From a virus, in the IMG/VR virus record IMGVR_UViG_3300045988_020417, positions 1 to 35,443 of that record: a stretch of DNA of 35,443 bases; one strand, 5' to 3'. This document shows, one piece after another, positions 6,137 to 17,360 of the stretch. The notes beneath the pieces are model-generated. The model searched no databases, was not told the origin of the DNA, and saw nothing but the letters and a program-made list of their open reading frames with translations. Made by a program: the position numbers and the translations under genes. How positions within the stretch are numbered: position 1 is the stretch's first letter; each line of letters opens with the position of its first letter.

Positions 6137-6607
6137 ATGGTTGAAAAAATCAAAAGTTTGCAGAATTTTTTAAAGTTACCTGAGAAACAGAAAAAAGCCG
6201 TTATGTTGCTGTTTTCAGGGGAAATGACGCAGGCAAAAATAGCGGAAGAAGTTAATGTTTCAGCGACAACGTTATCCACTTGGAAAACACACGAAGATTT
6301 TAGACGTGGGCAAGATGAATATACACGGTTTATGCTGCATGATTTATCATCTTCGGCCGTACTAACCATGAAAGAGCTATTGAATGCCAAGTCTGAAATG
6401 GTTCGATATAATGCCGCTTCATACATCATCGAAAAGGCTTTGAGCAGTGGTGACGAATTGAATAAACAACAGGCTCGCAAATCAAAGGCTGAGGCTGACA
6501 TCATGGAGGCCAAGGCCAAACGTGAAACTAGCGGAGACGGAACAGATGCTGTTAACGTCAATATCATCGTGCCAAATAGCAACGAGGAGCAGAAATATAA
6601 TGAGTAA
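6137..6607 (+). CDS. terS: Terminase small subunit (HTH type)
   Basis: 156 aa with the HTH MTQAKIAEEVNVSATTLSTWK. It sits directly upstream of TerL and overlaps its start. Confidence 0.65.
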   Translation: MVEKIKSLQNFLKLPEKQKKAVMLLFSGEMTQAKIAEEVNVSATTLSTWKTHEDFRRGQDEYTRFMLHDLSSSAVLTMKELLNAKSEMVRYNAASYIIEKALSSGDELNKQQARKSKAEADIMEAKAKRETSGDGTDAVNVNIIVPNSNEEQKYNE

Positions 6608-6930
6608 TATTACAATCGATATACCTAAAATCGTTTCACCTGCTTATTATCCGATGTTCACGAGCAATGCACGTTATCTCTCGTACAAGGGCAGTCGTGG
6701 ATCTGGCAAGTCAGTGGCCGCGGCTCGTAAGGTGATTGTGGATATACTACTTCACCCTTACGTCAACTGGCTGGTTATCCGGCAATACTTCGGTACACAC
6801 AAAGATTCCACTTTCGCAACCATAAAGAAGGCCGCAAGCGATCTCGGGGTATATGACCTTTTCAAGTTCACAGTGTCACCGCTTGAGATAACATATAAGC
6901 CTACTGGTCAAAAGATATTTTTCCGTGGGT
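6600..6930 (+). CDS. terL: Terminase large subunit, exon 1 (Walker A ATPase part)
   Basis: GAGGAG RBS. YKGSRGSGKS is the Walker A motif. Homology-like sequence ends at IFFRG, and the remaining ORF tail (TNQPTLNLINSVKG*) is intron read-through. Confidence 0.85.
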
Positions 6931-7035
6931 TAACAAACCAGCCCACGTTAAACCTCATTAATTCGGTTAAAGGCTAAACAGGCTAAGCTGTAGTTCAGAC
7001 CGAGCGTAGTTCTAGTATACAGCAGCCCCGGAAAA

Positions 7036-7044
7036 TGATATAAT
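7036..7044 (+). promoter_or_regulatory. Extended -10 element (TGaTATAAT) upstream of the GIY-YIG gene
   Basis: Exact TGnTATAAT match, 27 nt before ATG 7072. Confidence 0.45.
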
Positions 7045-7071
7045 GTCATTAGTGAAGGGGATGGAATTATC

Positions 7072-7557
7072 ATGTATTTAGTTTATTTATTTCAAGAAAA
7101 GTCAACAGGCAATGTTATTTACGTCGGTAGCACATCGAGAATGCAAGCACGATTGAAAGAACATAAGCGTGCGTTAGCCACTGGTAAAGGCGCTAGTAGA
7201 ATCCATAGATATATGAACTCTAAAAATTTAAAGCTGGTAAATGATGTTAGGATTATCTGGGAGTATAGTACTGATAACATGGAAGACATGCTAAAACATG
7301 AAGAATCAGAATATTACAAATGGCTACCAGCTGGTAATTTAATGAACGAGCGGCCTGGTGAAGATAGAAATGGATCTAACAATCCTAAGGCACGCGCTGT
7401 GCGTTGTTTTAACGATGGTAGAGTGTTTAAAACAATTTCTAGTGCTGCACGATATTATGGCATAACCCGACATGGAATTGATGATGTTATAAATGGACGC
7501 CGCAAGCAAACAGGACGCCGCAAGACTGGAATTGAATATAAATTTGAACGCGTGTAA
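7072..7557 (+). CDS. GIY-YIG homing endonuclease (intron-encoded)
   Basis: The N-terminus YLVYLFQEKSTGNVIYVGST...RLKEHK is a GIY-YIG module. The C-terminal repeat-like DNA-binding segment is AVRCFNDGRVFKTISSAARYYGITRHGI. Confidence 0.85.
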   Translation: MYLVYLFQEKSTGNVIYVGSTSRMQARLKEHKRALATGKGASRIHRYMNSKNLKLVNDVRIIWEYSTDNMEDMLKHEESEYYKWLPAGNLMNERPGEDRNGSNNPKARAVRCFNDGRVFKTISSAARYYGITRHGIDDVINGRRKQTGRRKTGIEYKFERV

Positions 7558-7702
7558 CGACTATCGAAAGCACCTTAAATGGTGAACGAGTAGAGTAAGC
7601 CCCAAGTGGGGTTGAAAGATGAGGGGCGAAAGCCAAGATATAGTCTGAACTTTATGGAAACATAGAGAGATATGTCGGGAACGGACATATCGTAACATAT
7701 TG

Positions 7703-8844
7703 TGGACGATGCGCTCAAGATAACCTCGATAACTACAGATGTCGGGGTTATTTGCCGTGAATGGATAGAGGAGGCTTACGAATTAAAGTCAAAATCGGCT
7801 TTTGAAACCGTTGAAGAATCCTTACGAGGCATTCTTCCTGATCCTCAAGGATTCTATCAGACCGTGATCACATTCAACCCGTGGAGCGACAGAAGCTGGC
7901 TTAAGAGTGAGTTCTTCGATGAAGATACGCGGAGACCCAACACGCGCAGTTTCACGACCACATACACGGATAACCCATGGTTAAATGATGACTACGTTGA
8001 AACCCTCAAGGACATGGTTAAGCGCAATCCTAACCGTGCCCGTGTCGCTGTATATGGAGACTGGGGCATTGCAGAAGGTCTTGTGTTTGATGGGCTGTTC
8101 GAGCAGCGCGATTTCAGTATGGAAGAGATAGCCACGTTGCCAAAAGCAGTCGGCCTTGACTTCGGTTTCAAGCATGACCCGACAGCGGGTGAGTTTATAG
8201 CCATTGATCAGCAGAACAGAGTCGTGTATATCTATGACGAGTTCTATCAGCAGGGGATGCTGACACAGCAGATTGCAGAGGCAATTGGGCAACACAAAGG
8301 CTATGGCTTGCAGATAACGGCTGATAGCGCCGAACAGAGGCTCATATCTGAGCTTTCAGGTGTATATGGTGTGCCAAACATCGTAGGCGCTGGCAAGGGA
8401 AAAGACAGCGTCTCACAGGGTATTCAATACATGCAGTCGTATCATTTCGTTGTTCATCCCCGTGTCAAGGGACTGTTGGAAGAATTCAACACTTACGTTT
8501 ATTCCAAAGACAAGTTTGACAACTGGACGAACACGCCTGAAGACGCTAATAACCATGCCTGCTTGACTGGTGATACATTGGTTGAAACTATTAACGGTAG
8601 CAAGCCAATCAGTGAGCTAGTAGGAAAAACTGGTAACGTTTATAGTCTTGACGCTGAAACTGGGAATGTAGTAGTTGATGAGTTTAGCAACGTATGCAAG
8701 ACAAGAAAACAAGCGGCAGTGTTTGAAATCGAATTAGAGGATGGGCGAACAGTCAAAGCAACAGCCGACCATAAGTTTCTTACCAAAGACGGTTGGAAAG
8801 AGTTAGCCGATTTAACAGAAGATGATGAGATTATCTCAATTTAA
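7703..8844 (+). CDS. terL: Terminase large subunit exon 2 (to 8559) fused to an N-terminal intein fragment (8560..8841)
   Basis: Walker B-like ICREWIEEA and nuclease-domain sequence run up to PEDANNHA. Intein blocks A (CLTGDTLVET) and B (TADHKFLT) follow, then a TAA stop. Confidence 0.8.
8560..8841 (+). mobile_element. Intein N-fragment (94 aa), terminated by a stop codon
   Basis: Cys1 at 8560; CLTGDTLV...GRTVKATADHKFLTKDGW. The frame closes at 8842..8844. Confidence 0.75.
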
Positions 8845-8865
8845 TGCGCCAAGATACTCCATGCA

Positions 8866-8874
8866 TGGTATAAT
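8866..8874 (+). promoter_or_regulatory. Extended -10 element (TGgTATAAT) upstream of the HNH gene
   Basis: Exact TGnTATAAT, followed by AGGAG (8882-8886) and ATG 8895. Confidence 0.45.
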
Positions 8875-8894
8875 GTATGTTAGGAGATGATTTT

Positions 8895-9530
8895 ATGAAA
8901 TCCATCACTGTAGACGGCTACCGTTTCGTAAAAGATGATCAAAGCGGTTATTGGCAATGCAACCAGTTCATTGCAAAAGAAGGAAAGCCGAAACGATTGC
9001 ACCGCTACGTCTGGGAAAAGTACCACGGTACAATAAAGCCCGGTTATGACGTCCACCACATTGACAAAAACAAAGACAACAACGATATTTCCAATTTGGT
9101 CTGTCTTTCTTCACATGACCACCAGCATTTGCACGGTGTTGAAAAGGTTAAAAACAACCATGAGTGGTTCGCTGAGTTTCACCAGCGTGGTATTGAATTA
9201 GCGCCTAAATGGCACGCTTCTGCTGAAGGACACGAGTGGCATTTAAAGCACTTCGAGGCGATGAAAGATAAACTGTACGCCAAAAAAGAATTTGTATGTG
9301 AACAATGTGGGAAAACATTTTCAGCACAAGATAACGGACACAACCGTTTCTGCTCCAACGCTTGCAAGTCAAAATGGCGTAGAAATAACCACATTGATGA
9401 TGTAGAAAGGACGTGTGTAATTTGTGGCACTAAATTCAGCGCAAACAAATATTCAAAAAAAGAAACCTGCTCACGTAGTTGTGCCTCAAAACTCTCGTTT
9501 GCAAAAAGGCGTGAAAATAAAGTCAATTAG
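8895..9530 (+). CDS. Free-standing HNH homing endonuclease between the two intein halves
   Basis: It has its own RBS and start, in a different frame from the intein. HNH core HHIDKNKDNNDISNLVCLSSHDHQHLH. C-terminal Cys-rich zinc-finger repeats (CEQCGKTF..C, CVICGTKF..C). Confidence 0.85.
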   Translation: MKSITVDGYRFVKDDQSGYWQCNQFIAKEGKPKRLHRYVWEKYHGTIKPGYDVHHIDKNKDNNDISNLVCLSSHDHQHLHGVEKVKNNHEWFAEFHQRGIELAPKWHASAEGHEWHLKHFEAMKDKLYAKKEFVCEQCGKTFSAQDNGHNRFCSNACKSKWRRNNHIDDVERTCVICGTKFSANKYSKKETCSRSCASKLSFAKRRENKVN

Positions 9531-9723
9531 TTTTTCCGGATATGAAGACGTTTATGACATGTATGTAAAGAACCACCATAACTTTGCTGTTAATGGTGGT
9601 TTTATTGTGCATAATTGTGACGCTTTGAGGTATGCGATGGAGCCGTTCACGTTCAGAACTGCCGGCCATTACATGAGCAACCAAGAACGCATTCAGACAA
9701 TCAAAAATTTAGGATTGGGGTGA
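9511..9723 (+). CDS. terL: Intein C-fragment (9511..9615, 35 aa) plus TerL C-extein (9616..9723); start uncertain (GTG 9511 or GTG 9424)
   Basis: (V/M)KIKSISFSGYEDVYDMYVKNHHNFAVNGGFIVHN followed by CDALRYAMEPF. Intein blocks F and G end in HN, then a +1 Cys. The extein carries the conserved terminase D-A-x-R-Y motif. Confidence 0.7.
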   Translation: MKIKSISFSGYEDVYDMYVKNHHNFAVNGGFIVHNCDALRYAMEPFTFRTAGHYMSNQERIQTIKNLGLG

Positions 9724-12212: not shown

Positions 12213-12443
12213 ATGGAAAATAAAACTAAAAGTGAAACCGCAAGCCGTGGCACAGGGTTTTGTGGCCTGCTGACGATCGCATTTATCGTTCTCAAACTGT
12301 GCCATGTCATCGACTGGCCATGGCTTTGGGTTGTATCACCAATCTTGATCGGATTTACACTTACGCTGGGAATCTTTTGCATCCTACTACTGGTTTATGG
12401 CGTAATTGCACTTTGTGAGCGCAAAAGCGGGAGGAAACAATGA
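12213..12443 (+). CDS. Small membrane protein (two predicted TM helices)
   Basis: GGAGGAAATA RBS. Hydrophobic stretches FCGLLTIAFIVL and VVSPILIGFTLTLGIFCILLLVYGVIAL. Confidence 0.55.
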   Translation: MENKTKSETASRGTGFCGLLTIAFIVLKLCHVIDWPWLWVVSPILIGFTLTLGIFCILLLVYGVIALCERKSGRKQ

Positions 12444-12906: not shown

Positions 12907-13449
12907 ATGGCAGAAGAAACACAAACTCAAGAAGAAGTCGAGACAACCGAAACCACCACTCAGGCGCCAACCACATATACGCAGGCTCAGCTTGACAGCG
13001 AGGCCGATAAACGTGCAGCTAAGGCACTGGAAACAGCCAGGGCTAAGTGGGAAGCAGAACAGGCTAAGGCGCTTGAGGAAGCCAAGAGTGAAGGCGCACG
13101 GCTTGCTAAGATGACCGAAGATGAAAAGGCCAAAGAGCTTGAGAAACAGCGACAGGCAGAACTAGACAAGCGTGAGGCTGAACTCAATCGGCGCGAGTTG
13201 TCGACAAGTACGAAGTCATTACTCGTTGACAAAGGACTGCCGGCTGACTTTGCTGACTCTCTGGTTGCTTTGGGTGATGCTGACAAGATCAAGACGGCTG
13301 TTGAGAATATTCAGAAGACAATTCAAGAGACGGTAAACAAGCAGGTTGAATCTAAGCTGCAAACGGATCCGCCTAAAAATGGTGCTTCTGCCCTTGATGG
13401 CCCTGACGATCCATTCAAGAAAATCATGGCACAATACAAAAAGAAATAG
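12907..13449 (+). CDS. Head scaffolding protein
   Basis: 180 aa, rich in Glu/Lys/Ala and coiled-coil-like. It lies just before the major capsid gene. Confidence 0.75.
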   Translation: MAEETQTQEEVETTETTTQAPTTYTQAQLDSEADKRAAKALETARAKWEAEQAKALEEAKSEGARLAKMTEDEKAKELEKQRQAELDKREAELNRRELSTSTKSLLVDKGLPADFADSLVALGDADKIKTAVENIQKTIQETVNKQVESKLQTDPPKNGASALDGPDDPFKKIMAQYKKK

Positions 13450-13462
13450 GAGGTAGCTAATC

Positions 13463-14380
13463 ATGGCTACAGAAAACAACGATTTACCAGTACGCATCTA
13501 TCAGAAGCAATTCATCGGTTTAATGCAAACCGTATTCGGTGTGCAAAGCACATTCACCCCAACATTCGGCGCACTGCAAGCACTCGATAGCGTTCAAAAC
13601 AACGCGATTGCGTTCAGTGTTAAAGCGAATGATGTGCCTGTTGCTGTTGGCACATACAACACTGATCCTAACGTGGCATTTGGCTCTGGCACCAGCAACT
13701 CTAACCGCTTCGGGCCAATGAAGGAAATTATCTATGGCGACATCGATGTACCATATTCCTTCGGCTGGAGTTTCAACGAAGGTATCGACCAGCTCACTGT
13801 CAACAACGATCTAAATGCTGCAGTGGCTGACCGCCTGAACTTGCAAGCACAAGCTAAGACGCGGCTGTTCAACAGCAAGCTGGGCGCCTACTTGGTTGCT
13901 AGTGCTGCGGCTGATCTTGGTGCGGTTGATGATGTCAACAAGGTATTCGAAGCGGCGTCCGAACGTTACACGGATCTTGAAGTCGTTGTTCCAGTTCGTG
14001 CATACGTTACTGCCGAAGTTTACAACGCAATCATCGACCACCAGTTGGTAACCAGCTCCAAAGGTTCTGCTGTGAACATCGACGAAAATGGCATCGTTCG
14101 TTTCCGCGACATCATTGTTACCAAGACGCCTACTCGTTACATGGCTGGCAAGGCCATCATCTTTGCACCTGATAACATTGGCCGTGCATTTACTGGCATC
14201 AACGTTGTTCGGACGATTCAATCCGAGAACTTTGCGGGCGTTGCTTTGCAAGGTGCCGGTAAGGCAGGTCAGTGGATCAGCGATGACAACCGTCAGGCAA
14301 TCTTCACTGCCGGGACGTCAGCAACTACCACGACCACTACAAAAGCTACAACGACAACCACAACTACTTCGCACGCTTAG
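13463..14380 (+). CDS. Major capsid protein with a Thr-rich C-terminal tail
   Basis: GGAGG RBS. 305 aa, positioned after the scaffold gene. The C-terminus is TSATTTTTTKATTTTTTTSHA. Confidence 0.8.
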   Translation: MATENNDLPVRIYQKQFIGLMQTVFGVQSTFTPTFGALQALDSVQNNAIAFSVKANDVPVAVGTYNTDPNVAFGSGTSNSNRFGPMKEIIYGDIDVPYSFGWSFNEGIDQLTVNNDLNAAVADRLNLQAQAKTRLFNSKLGAYLVASAAADLGAVDDVNKVFEAASERYTDLEVVVPVRAYVTAEVYNAIIDHQLVTSSKGSAVNIDENGIVRFRDIIVTKTPTRYMAGKAIIFAPDNIGRAFTGINVVRTIQSENFAGVALQGAGKAGQWISDDNRQAIFTAGTSATTTTTTKATTTTTTTSHA

Positions 14381-14448
14381 TTAATTGATGCAAGTCGCCT
14401 ATCGAAATAGGACAGTACGGGAAACCGGGCGGCTGATTGGAGGACAGA

Positions 14449-15327
14449 ATGAAACTCATCTTGTGTCAACCCGCTATTCAGAGATTTGAGTGGGAGCTGG
14501 AAGTCTGCCTAACCAATCTGCAAAGTGTCGGGTTTGACATGAAAGATGTCGTTTTGCTCTTCACTGTGCATGATTCTAAGGTGCCAGAAACGCTTTCCAG
14601 CAAACATGGAGTAGAAGTACACACGTATACTGACAAGCGCTCAGACAAGCAATATATCCCGTCTGTGAAGCCGTGGCTATGGTGGCAGTATCTTGCAGAA
14701 GACCATGAGCGTGAGAATGAAGACTATTTCTACTTCGACAGCGATGTGATCTTCCGTAAACGGCCAGACTTTCGCAAGCTGAAAGCAAAGCCTGATCGTT
14801 GGCTGTGCAGTAACACGCTTAGCTATATCAGTGTTGACTATATCAAGCAGTGCGAACACGGAGAAGAGATTCTGAAACGCATGGCTGACATTGTCGGAGT
14901 TACGGTAGCTTCGCTTGAAACAATCAACCACAATTCGGGTGGTGCCCAATGGCTCATCAGTCACCCGTCAACTGAATACTGGCGAAAGGTGTATGTCGAT
15001 AGCAACCGACTGTGGCAATACTTGCAGACAGTCGACAGCAATATCCAGAAATGGACCGCAGAAATGTGGGCGCAGTTGTGGAATATGATGTATTTCAACA
15101 TCGGACCCGTCATCAGCGATGAACTAGACTTTTGTTGGGCTACTGATCCAGTCAAGCGATGGAATGAAACCAAGATCATGCACAATGCTGGCGTGACCGT
15201 GAATGACAAACGCTTGTTCTTCAAAGGCAAGTACGTTAATCACACGCCGTTTGATGATGACCTTAGTTTTGTTGACAAGTCGAAGTGCTCATACAAGTAT
15301 GTGCAAGCAGTAAAGGCGGTGAAATGA
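14449..15327 (+). CDS. Putative GT-A fold nucleotide-sugar glycosyltransferase (GT8-like)
   Basis: GGAGG RBS 5 nt before ATG 14449. DxD motif in YFYFDSDVIF. A GT8-like layout: YIPSVKPWLWWQYL upstream, NSGGAQWLIS...YWRK downstream, and IMHNAG near the C-terminus. Confidence 0.55.
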   Translation: MKLILCQPAIQRFEWELEVCLTNLQSVGFDMKDVVLLFTVHDSKVPETLSSKHGVEVHTYTDKRSDKQYIPSVKPWLWWQYLAEDHERENEDYFYFDSDVIFRKRPDFRKLKAKPDRWLCSNTLSYISVDYIKQCEHGEEILKRMADIVGVTVASLETINHNSGGAQWLISHPSTEYWRKVYVDSNRLWQYLQTVDSNIQKWTAEMWAQLWNMMYFNIGPVISDELDFCWATDPVKRWNETKIMHNAGVTVNDKRLFFKGKYVNHTPFDDDLSFVDKSKCSYKYVQAVKAVK

Positions 15328-15686
15328 TGGCTGATTCAGATACAAAGGAAGATATTTTGGCAAGTGTTAAGCTTCGCATCAGTTTGACTGATACGTTGCA
15401 AGATAACTTGTTGAGTGATTTGATTGATGACGCCACAGCACGTGTGCTGACTTATATCAACCAAGACGGTATTGTCAATCAGACTGTACCAGATGCAGTT
15501 GCATGGGTAATCAAGGACATTGTGGTGAAGATGTATAACCGCATCGGTGATGAAGGCAAGCAAAGTGGCACCGAAGGCAACGTATCAAACACGTGGGAAG
15601 CAATAGATTTGTCTAAGTATTCTGACGCGCTGGACGGCTACCGTGAGTCATCGCAAAGCCGCCGACCGGGGATGAGATTCGTATGA
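15324..15686 (+). CDS. Head-tail connector protein (gp6-like)
   Basis: ATGA overlap with the upstream gene. The pattern ILASVKLRISLTDTLQDNLLSDLIDDATARVLTY is typical of gp6-like connectors. Confidence 0.7.
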   Translation: MMADSDTKEDILASVKLRISLTDTLQDNLLSDLIDDATARVLTYINQDGIVNQTVPDAVAWVIKDIVVKMYNRIGDEGKQSGTEGNVSNTWEAIDLSKYSDALDGYRESSQSRRPGMRFV

Positions 15687-16709: not shown

Positions 16710-17360
16710 ATGGCAGTTCCAGTAAACAATGGCATTAAGTATGTAAAAGATACCCCTTATCGTGGTAAAGACGTTTGGTACTTTATCCAATCAACAGATC
16801 CTAAAGTAGCGCCCATTGGTAGCCCCGCAATCTTGCCGGCTCACCAAGAGTCCGGCGATACAAGTATCGAAGGCGATTCTCTTGATGAACAAACCAAGAT
16901 GGGTCGCGTTGTAGCAGCGTCAACCAATGAAGATAGTATTGAGCTAACGAGCTACATGGTTCCCGGGGACACCGCAAACGACATCATTATTGATGCCAAG
17001 CACAATGGCCGGCAAGTTAAGGTATGGCGCGTCATTGTTGATGAACGACTTGCAGTTGTCGAAGGCGACCACAAGGCTTATCCAGCAATGTTTGGCTATG
17101 GTATTGTCGACAGTGCCGACATTTCCGATGAAGACAGTTTCTCCGAAATGGACTTCACTTTGAACATCATCGGTAAATTGGCAGACAAGAACGCTGACGG
17201 TACGCCCGGCACCTTCCCTCTGTCTGACGATCAGGTGGCAGCACTTAGTGAACTGTACGACTACGAACGCCCAGGTGAAAAGCAAGGTGAATTTGCTGAC
17301 AGTGCAGTAACATCGACTACCACAAGCTCATCAACTACTACCACCACTTCACACGCTTAA
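16710..17360 (+). CDS. Major tail (tube) protein with a Thr/Ser-rich C-terminal tail
   Basis: 216 aa, positioned before the chaperone pair and the tape measure protein. The C-terminus is TSTTTSSSTTTTTSHA. Confidence 0.8.
   Translation: MAVPVNNGIKYVKDTPYRGKDVWYFIQSTDPKVAPIGSPAILPAHQESGDTSIEGDSLDEQTKMGRVVAASTNEDSIELTSYMVPGDTANDIIIDAKHNGRQVKVWRVIVDERLAVVEGDHKAYPAMFGYGIVDSADISDEDSFSEMDFTLNIIGKLADKNADGTPGTFPLSDDQVAALSELYDYERPGEKQGEFADSAVTSTTTSSSTTTTTSHA

Follow-up and report, generated by a model that had tools for sequence, protein, structure and literature searches.

Why would a siphophage place a predicted glycosyltransferase gene between the gene for its major capsid protein and that for its head-tail adaptor, and on what would the product act? 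This question is raised by the viral contig IMGVR_UViG_3300045988_020417, one entire JGI/IMG contig of 35,443 bp (hereafter "the window") that stems from a Lacticaseibacillus-type siphophage and whose closest relative in GenBank is Lacticaseibacillus phage R3.3 (87% nucleotide identity across a 3-kb region). An original prediction, made from the sequence of the window, had proposed that the gene at 14449..15327 (+ strand, 292 amino acids (aa)) encodes a GT-A/GT8-like glycosyltransferase that modifies the virion itself, the capsid and tail tube proteins both carrying threonine-rich ends. Based on the modelled fold of the enzyme, its conserved residues, its position in the structural operon and its association with such ends across phages, we consider it likely that this gene encodes an O-glycosyltransferase decorating poly-threonine (poly-Thr) tags on the capsid and the tail tube.

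A family of predicted GT-A glycosyltransferases

The open reading frame (ORF) extends from an ATG at 14449 to a TGA at 15325-15327, and a Shine-Dalgarno sequence, GGAGGA (14439..14444, + strand, read from the sequence), lies 4 nucleotides (nt) 5' of its start. Its stop codon overlaps the start codon (15324) of the head-tail adaptor gene (15324..15686, + strand, phrog_132, E 2e-28) as ATGA, so that the gene forms part of the late structural operon; no promoter-like or terminator-like site was found on the + strand from the capsid gene to the adaptor gene. The good ribosome-binding site, the overlap and the operon membership are thus as first described, and the peptides quoted at the time (YFYFDSDVIF, YIPSVKPWLWWQYL, NSGGAQW...YWRK and IMHNAG) are all found in the translation. 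The protein matches phrog_4417 over its entire length (E 8.1e-150, residues 1-292 versus profile positions 1-292 of 293), a family annotated in PHROGs as "unknown function", and homologues in GenBank phage records are labelled hypothetical or "prophage pi2 protein 34". A full-length copy is present in 77 GenBank phage records; 616 matches were obtained in a 90%-clustered database, and an exhaustive hidden Markov model (HMM) search yielded 874 homologue clusters (50% identity, E <= 0.001), 509 of them at E <= 1e-30. Given these 874 clusters and the full-length copies in 77 phage records, the gene is real.

Curated collections were silent on the nature of the protein: it matched no Pfam family even at E <= 10, no NCBIfam model, no defence-system model of PADLOC, and no solved structure in sequence searches of the PDB (phmmer; 55-sequence profile), where a match to a kinetochore protein (E 0.2) was rejected as noise. 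Structure comparison was informative. The AlphaFold2 model, built from a 55-sequence alignment (mean predicted local distance difference test (pLDDT) 97.3, predicted template modelling score (pTM) 0.93), consists of a single domain of alternating beta-alpha elements, and all of its top 50 Foldseek matches in the PDB were GT-A glycosyltransferases of the retaining GT24/GT8/GT6 group (probability 1.00), including UGGT, WbbM, glycogenin, LgtC, alpha3GalT, GTA/GTB and the Skp1 galactosyltransferase. The best of these was the catalytic domain of UGGT (GT24; E 4e-8, template modelling (TM) score 0.52-0.55), and the GT8 structures of glycogenin, LgtC and 3tzt were matched at E 2e-6 to 1e-5 (TM 0.43-0.60). 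A glycosyltransferase fold, whose absence had been named beforehand as the outcome speaking against the prediction, was thus recovered. Against the BFVD, the matches that came after two members of the same family were to nucleotide-diphospho-sugar transferases, of GT8 type and others, from giant viruses and cyanophages, and UniRef names one homologue "Glycosyl transferase family 8". The label "GT8-like" therefore holds by fold but not by sequence: besides the silence of Pfam, hhalign comparison of a 150-sequence profile with the Escherichia coli GT8 enzymes WaaJ and WaaO gave probabilities of 0.2-1.2%, which is not significant, even if the non-significant WaaO alignment pairs FDSDVIF with LDADIIC. 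Of the two types of comparison that had been suggested, profile searches remained mute and only the structural one was positive (GT-A, GT24/GT8/GT6).

The predicted DxD motif for binding of the metal and the nucleotide-sugar (D97-S98-D99, codons at 14737..14745, + strand) directly follows strand beta4 (residues 92-95, YFYF, DSSP), in line with what had been read from its hydrophobic context. In A2, an alignment of 150 representatives that are 30-50% identical to the window protein, D97, D99, G165, A166, Q167, H245, G248 and K259 are conserved in at least 90% of the sequences; D97 and D99 are invariant in alignment A1, and no variation is seen in the DxD, the His or the Lys across 59 long multidomain homologues. 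H245 (codon 15181..15183, + strand, in IMHNAG), invariant or nearly so in A1, A2 and the long homologues, is by its conservation a candidate third metal ligand, as in GT8 and GT6. The persistence of the DxD, His, GAQ and Lys at such identities is the pattern expected for an active site. No transmembrane segment was found in the enzyme (maximum Kyte-Doolittle 19-residue mean of 1.12). Based on the fold model, the conserved residues, the lack of a membrane span and the silent profiles, we predict a soluble GT-A glycosyltransferase of a family that lies outside Pfam, NCBIfam and PHROG annotations.

Approximately 40% of the 150 best representatives are proteins of two or three domains (P0159-P0270, 400-780 aa), the extra regions of which mostly have no Pfam match. 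Those partners that could be named in the 59 longer homologues include Glyco_transf_7C (nine cases), Glycos_transf_2 (four) and Glyco_transf_6 (one), along with Methyltransf_24, Glyco_transf_25 (weak) and radical SAM/SPASM domains; such fusions are consistent with multi-step glycan assembly. These data bear on the possibility that the protein is a non-catalytic derivative of a glycosyltransferase fold, acting as a sugar-nucleotide-binding or assembly factor (for instance a chaperone of the Thr-tailed proteins), while the tails either receive sugars from host enzymes or none. Catalytically dead GT-A folds do exist, the activity of this enzyme is a prediction, and its sequence similarity to characterised enzymes is undetectable. 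Yet the retention of the DxD, His, GAQ and Lys across the 150 divergent representatives and the repeated fusion with second glycosyltransferase domains argue against a loss of catalysis, which we hold to be unlikely. A separate peculiarity of the family is a conserved C-terminal extension of approximately 60 aa in homologues from halophilic Bacillaceae (P0092, P0098, P0110 and P0122), with the motif ...F.DLED.K.Y..GD.FP.P.NKKVS.ERL.ELSS..NKAGRP...

Poly-threonine tails beside the enzyme gene

The proposed substrate of the enzyme is encoded directly upstream. The major capsid (major head) protein (13463..14380, + strand, phrog_840, E 6e-120), which bears in its database record the name "MAG TPA: major capsid protein [Caudoviricetes sp.]", terminates in ...GTSATTTTTTKATTTTTTTSHA, its poly-Thr tag being encoded at 14315..14377 (+ strand; TSATTTTTTKATTTTTTTSHA, 16 Ser/Thr). 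The proposed second substrate, the major tail (tube) protein (16710..17360, + strand, phrog_238, E 2e-49), ends in ...VTSTTTSSSTTTTTSHA, a Ser/Thr-rich tag encoded at 17307..17357 (+ strand, 14 Ser/Thr), and both tags close with the same residues, TSHA (14366-14377 and 17346-17357). The Thr-rich ends noticed at the outset are therefore present, and no other ORF of 60 aa or longer, in any of the six frames of the window, has a poly-Thr run; one of seven Thr would be expected approximately 5e-5 times in 9,634 residues at the Thr frequency of 6.6%. All four Thr codons are used in the tags, so these do not represent a DNA repeat artefact. An AlphaFold model of the capsid protein, intended to inform on disorder and exposure of the tail, reached a pLDDT of 30 on a shallow alignment of 11 sequences and was not used.

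The link between enzyme and tags, guessed from one genome, proved general among phages, and the pair is found in hundreds of those that infect Gram-positive hosts. We defined a tail as a C-terminal stretch with at least seven Ser/Thr in eight residues, including at least five Thr, and found a poly-Thr-tailed ORF in all 83 loci of a positive set made of 80 viral-contig loci and three GenBank phages encoding a homologue. Six more distant carriers (phiCTP1, 1706, VPE25, PMBT8, Iacchus and LP65; the tails of LP65 and of the phiCTP1 tube protein were scored by eye) are tailed as well, bringing the count to 89/89 with the window included, a raw number which, given the kinship of the loci, overstates independent events and is more fairly read as 21 substrate clusters and approximately eight host genera. 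In Clostridium phage phiCTP1, the tube protein ending in ...EETTTTTNAPITTTTTTV is encoded immediately 5' of the enzyme gene; in Lactococcus phage 1706, T9-10-HHD ends both the capsid/protease fusion and the major tail protein; Enterococcus phage VPE25, Staphylococcus phage PMBT8 and the Lactiplantibacillus plantarum myophage Iacchus encode the enzyme together with tailed proteins; and in the L. plantarum myophage LP65, the two genes directly 5' of the enzyme gene end in TTTETQTQTQ repeats, one of the two being annotated in the record as structural (2-D gel, mass spectrometry). Clustering of the 166 tailed proteins gave 21 groups whose cores share no BLASTP similarity; several sorts of capsid protein are represented, as are tail tube types and small, Thr-rich proteins that resemble decoration proteins. 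In 84 of 88 loci, no more than 150 nt separate the end of the nearest tailed ORF from the enzyme gene downstream of it.

The association also holds in the opposite direction. Among 120 viral loci chosen solely because they encode (Thr)8, seven contain the enzyme family (E 1e-92 to 1e-127), and in each of these seven the poly-Thr match adjoins the enzyme gene. A two-pattern scan of viral contigs gave approximately 550 enzyme copies in 2.9 million contigs, and the enrichment thus exceeds one order of magnitude, even if the pattern scan undercounts ten-fold.

The residues that follow the Thr run differ between groups of phages (window and loci L001-L083): SHA, SHV, SHG and THG are found in Lacticaseibacillus, HHD and RHD in the Lactococcus phages 1706 and bIL285, and TSK, TQG and TQA in other loci. 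They are identical between the capsid and the tail protein of one phage in 21 of 50 distinct pairs versus 9.5 expected from shuffling, a statistic inflated by the shared ancestry of the loci. That they are so often alike in both proteins hints that the tails are true tags, and the motif may represent a recognition element for the enzyme or else the product of gene conversion.

Two further kinds of Thr-rich protein are encoded directly 5' of the enzyme gene. The first are small proteins of 125-130 aa (PLE3_8, L002 4620-4997; Iacchus gp072, L097 19604-19996), in which Thr repeats such as TTTTTVKPTTTTT make up nearly all of the C-terminal half and which may serve specifically as glycan carriers or as decoration proteins. 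The second are proteins of 556 to 2,067 aa (L152 3204-9407, L187 7132-12111, L199 3265-8265 and L105 1142-2812; three of the four measure 1,659-2,067 aa) with internal poly-Thr tracts and Cys-containing C-termini, which suggests that there are fibre-like substrates besides capsid and tube.

An Ig-like cassette at the same slot and the proposed acceptor of the enzyme

Relatives that lack the enzyme also lack the tails. Nine control phages (Bassarid, phiJL-1, WC29P3, PBC1, TMW 1.591 P1, A25, BM13, phiFL4A and ul36), with capsid proteins homologous to that of the window (36-75% identity), gave no HMM match to the enzyme and encode no poly-Thr ORF; their capsid proteins stop at ...AIFTA(SPKA), the point where the window protein runs on into its tag, and the tail proteins of Bassarid and phiJL-1 that are homologous to the one of the window bear no tag. 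Ten further capsid homologues (67-72% identity) without enzyme are also tail-less, which brings the controls to 19. With these controls and the adjacency found in most carriers, the proposed enzyme-tag link is well supported.

What occupies the slot in the absence of the enzyme could be seen in close relatives. A homology search with the capsid core, in which every protein found was at least 95% identical, exposed tail-less variants of 287 aa (P0297, P0353 and P0362) that are 95-96% identical to the window protein and end in ...AIFTASPKA. In the enzyme slot, these near-isogenic variants have an ORF in the -1 frame for an immunoglobulin (Ig)-like domain (Big_2-type), on contigs that end 60-250 nt past the capsid gene; an exact-pattern search in viral contigs for the capsid/Ig-like junction of these variants found none. 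As in Bassarid, the Ig-like ORF of these variants is entered at a slippery heptamer C_CCA_AAA (-1), which in sister phages with tail-less capsid proteins (L221-L224, just after the capsid gene; L084, 5700-6050; L225-L236) lies in the last capsid codons. The statement that such head modules go straight from the capsid gene to the connector genes is therefore incorrect for the sister phages, where a -1 frameshift gives access to an Ig-like ORF in this place. Across 59 viral loci with an Ig-like capsid extension, ten of which are the source of the ten further capsid homologues above, we found neither an enzyme homologue nor a C-terminally poly-Thr-tailed protein. Since the tail-less relatives have the Ig-like ORF, and the Ig-like loci have neither enzyme nor tail, the poly-Thr and enzyme cassette and the frameshift Ig cassette are mutually exclusive alternatives at one slot, between the capsid core and the adaptor gene. 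An Ig-like extension of a phage capsid is a surface decoration, which argues that the tagged C-terminus is exposed as well.

The fold by itself cannot tell the acceptor of the enzyme, and a host envelope polymer (wall or lipoteichoic acid, or a cell-wall polysaccharide) has to be considered, the Thr tails then being unrelated flexible linkers. In this case, the enzyme would resemble the TarP- or Gtr-type enzymes of prophages and would block superinfection or the re-adsorption of progeny to lysed cells. Teichoic acids are common acceptors of soluble GT-A enzymes in Gram-positive bacteria, and the present enzyme is soluble by prediction and found in many copies in prophages. Its gene, however, lies in the late structural operon, translationally coupled to the adaptor gene, and not in a position typical of lysogenic conversion; copies are also carried by large siphophages of Enterococcus and Staphylococcus and by myophages of the Herelleviridae, most of which were isolated as free phages, and no defence-system model was matched. 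Modification of the envelope would moreover leave unexplained both the co-occurrence and adjacency with tags on 21 unrelated families and the absence of tails where the enzyme is missing, and we deem it quite improbable. A role in the glycosylation of phage DNA, yielding hypermodified bases as the T4 glucosyltransferases do and thereby evading restriction, is very improbable. DNA-modifying phage glycosyltransferases are well known, with diverse examples described in bioRxiv 10.1101/2023.12.21.572611, but PHROG scans of the early and replication genes of the window found a DNA methyltransferase and no hydroxymethyl-pyrimidine pathway, with neither a deoxycytidylate/deoxyuridylate (dCMP/dUMP) hydroxymethylase nor a 5-methylcytosine (5mC) dioxygenase. 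The gene is surrounded by head and tail genes and adjoins the putative protein substrate in nearly all loci, and an association with poly-Thr is not predicted by such a function.

We therefore favour the glycosylation of the poly-Thr tags, for which we propose the following course. The enzyme would be made late, in the cytoplasm, alongside the structural proteins, and would bind a divalent cation and its donor, a uridine diphosphate (UDP)- or other nucleoside diphosphate (NDP)-sugar, through D97, D99 and H245. The donor would be taken from the host, since the window contains no sugar-activating genes; PHROG scans of its early and replication genes detected no other sugar-related gene. The sugar would be transferred onto the Thr/Ser hydroxyls of the disordered tails, each capsid subunit offering 16 candidate sites and each tube subunit 14, and the linkage is probably alpha because the closest folds all belong to retaining enzymes. 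Assuming approximately 400 capsid subunits (if T=7) and tube subunits numbering a few hundred, thousands of sugars could be carried by a virion, giving head and tail a coat of mucin-like O-glycans. Candidate benefits include a shield against antibodies or proteases (as for mycobacteriophage Che8), adhesion to mucus or matrix in replacement of the Ig domain, and a reduction of non-productive binding.

Several observations weigh against this reading. Sequence profiles connect the family to none of the curated glycosyltransferase families (Pfam, NCBIfam, PDB, hhalign), the TM-scores to known enzymes are only 0.45-0.55, and it is from conservation that we infer the equivalence of D97, D99 and H245 to the metal ligands of GT8. 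In three to four loci (bIL285, VPE25 and L033) the nearest tailed gene lies approximately 3 kb away from the enzyme gene, and the positive loci mostly come from closely related Lacticaseibacillus prophages. No glycosylated virions have been reported for any carrier phage in the full-text literature searched. Finally, tailed virion proteins are encoded on contigs without the enzyme in the fetched piece (L106, L141 and L201), so the tag is not exclusive to this enzyme family.

The latter contigs deserve a description of their own. Several virion genes with terminal poly-Thr tails are found in L106 (4640-8486), L141 (161-3360) and L201 (2080-12711), with up to six of them in succession in L201, and the tailed products include Pfam Phage_capsid and Phage_cap_E proteins. 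Pfam scans of the fetched pieces of L106, L141, L189 and L201 detected no alternative glycosyltransferase. Other enzymes may use the tag in these contigs, or the enzyme may be encoded elsewhere in the genome.

Collectively, these data incline us, with more reserve than for the enzyme of the window, towards a broader proposal: a portable two-part system common in phages of Bacillota, made of a C-terminal poly-Thr "glycosylation tag" and a single dedicated glycosyltransferase of a previously unrecognised GT-A family, which would have spread to 21 or more virion proteins without mutual kinship and would yield a mucin-like coat, interchangeable with an Ig domain, and with the post-Thr residues as a possible recognition element. 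The tagged proteins would comprise capsid, decoration, tail tube and giant fibre-like proteins, and the tag and the Ig domain would be alternative answers to one and the same problem of surface interaction.

Comparison with known systems and neighbouring genes

To our knowledge, phage-encoded glycosylation of virions has so far been known essentially from a few mycobacteriophages only, where it blunts recognition by antibodies. According to work by Freeman and colleagues in 2023, the modification in these phages is reportedly located at the C-terminus of the capsid subunits and of the tail tube subunits; our proposal concerns the same pair of proteins and the same terminus. The systems comprise Che8 gp108-110, Corndog gp38 and Myrna (Freeman et al., 2023, via PMC12363180 and PMC12894461), and phage-encoded glycosyltransferases are held responsible for the glycans on virion proteins, as in the present case. 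By Pfam, gp108 of Che8 contains GT2 and Methyltransf_24 domains, gp109 a GT2 domain and gp110 a GT25 domain, and these types (GT25 weakly) recur as fusion partners in the longer homologues of the present family. The enzymes themselves are unrelated, as hhalign comparison of A1 with gp109 and gp110 gave probabilities below 1%. Whereas Che8 has three genes at the right end of its genome, a single gene lies here in the structural operon beside a substrate gene; the capsid and tail proteins of Che8 end in ...NKTGS and ...YSDGS without a poly-Thr tract, in contrast to the tags of 14-16 Ser/Thr residues found here; and the hosts are Actinomycetota for Che8 and Bacillota for the present family. Six tblastn matches in Mycobacterium phages (E <= 10) were considered as a bridge between the two and rejected as noise, since they cover 63 residues of hypothetical proteins at E = 2. 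The concept of virion glycosylation is therefore already known, and it is in enzyme family, gene organisation, acceptor architecture and host phylum that the present case differs from Che8.

With the retaining GT-A enzymes (LgtC and glycogenin of GT8, UGGT of GT24, alpha3GalT and GTA/GTB of GT6), the family shares its fold and the location of the DxD after beta4. GT8 enzymes have a C-terminal H-x-x-G-x-x-K motif, which is resembled by the C-terminal HNAG...KGK of the present family, but the latter has no significant match to PF01501 or any other glycosyltransferase model. The acceptors differ as well: lipopolysaccharide, glycogenin itself or an N-glycan for the known enzymes, and the poly-Thr tail of a protein in our proposal. 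Dense O-glycans on disordered Ser/Thr tracts are laid down on folded or unfolded acceptor protein by soluble, nucleotide-sugar-dependent enzymes both in mucin-type glycosylation (eukaryotic ppGalNAc-transferases) and in that of the serine-rich repeat proteins (SRRPs) of streptococci and lactobacilli; the latter includes GT8-domain enzymes. The likeness to these systems is one of working principle only, by composition, since here a short C-terminal tag is concerned on virus proteins assembled in the cytoplasm, and the enzyme is virus-encoded and of a separate family.

Ig-like decoration of capsid and tail proteins by programmed frameshifting was reportedly described by Fraser and colleagues in 2006 and is said to occur in gp5A/gp5B of Lactobacillus phage A2. 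This decoration sits in the genome precisely where the tag does, and at the same end of the protein (sister phages with capsids 67-75% and 95-96% identical), and both are optional decorations of the head and tail surface; the Ig is a protein domain obtained by recoding, in contrast to the low-complexity tag with its enzyme. Giant viruses also glycosylate their capsids with enzymes of their own (Vp54 of chlorovirus PBCV-1, mimivirus fibrils; PMC4691112, PMC7019647). Their host-independent glycosylation of structural proteins is alike, and GT8- and GT-A-type proteins of theirs are among the BFVD fold matches, but they differ by their eukaryotic hosts and multi-enzyme pathways, some of which make their own nucleotide-sugars, and by glycans that are atypically N-linked or carried by fibrils instead of a poly-Thr tag. 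In the full texts searched, which cover few subscription journals, we found no paper on the present enzyme family or on poly-Thr tails of phage structural proteins.

If our proposal is correct, glycosylated virions would be common in phages of lactic acid bacteria, enterococci, staphylococci, clostridia and lactococci, including VPE25-like Enterococcus phages, Staphylococcus phages and those of the dairy industry, VPE25 being in use for studies of phage resistance (PMC4999554). This would bear on the immunogenicity and pharmacokinetics of phages and on their adherence to gut mucus, and would affect how densities in cryo-electron microscopy and mass anomalies in SDS-PAGE are read. It would also give a function to the large "hypothetical protein" family phrog_4417 with its 874 clusters, and would offer a minimal pair of enzyme and peptide tag that might serve to glyco-engineer phages or proteins in Gram-positive bacteria. 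The prediction is open to test in the cultured carriers PLE3, iLp84, R3.3, phiFL1A, VPE25 and 1706.

The neighbourhood of the gene shows two further features. Within the head-morphogenesis module, an ORF of 76 aa (12213-12443), predicted to encode a small membrane protein with two strongly hydrophobic stretches, is located between the minor head protein gene and the scaffold protein gene (12907-13449, PHROGs). Further upstream, the terminase region (6137-9723) appears to be interrupted by mobile elements: the small terminase (6137-6607) is followed by a homing-endonuclease-like ORF (7072-7557), a large-terminase fragment (7702-8844), an HNH endonuclease in a frame that differs from that of the fragment (8877-9530), and an ORF of 99 aa in the terminase frame (9424-9723). 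The latter contains ...NHHNFAVNGGFIVHNCDALRY, which resembles the C-terminal splice junction of an intein (HN|C), and the terminase gene of the window may thus have an intron or an intein inside.

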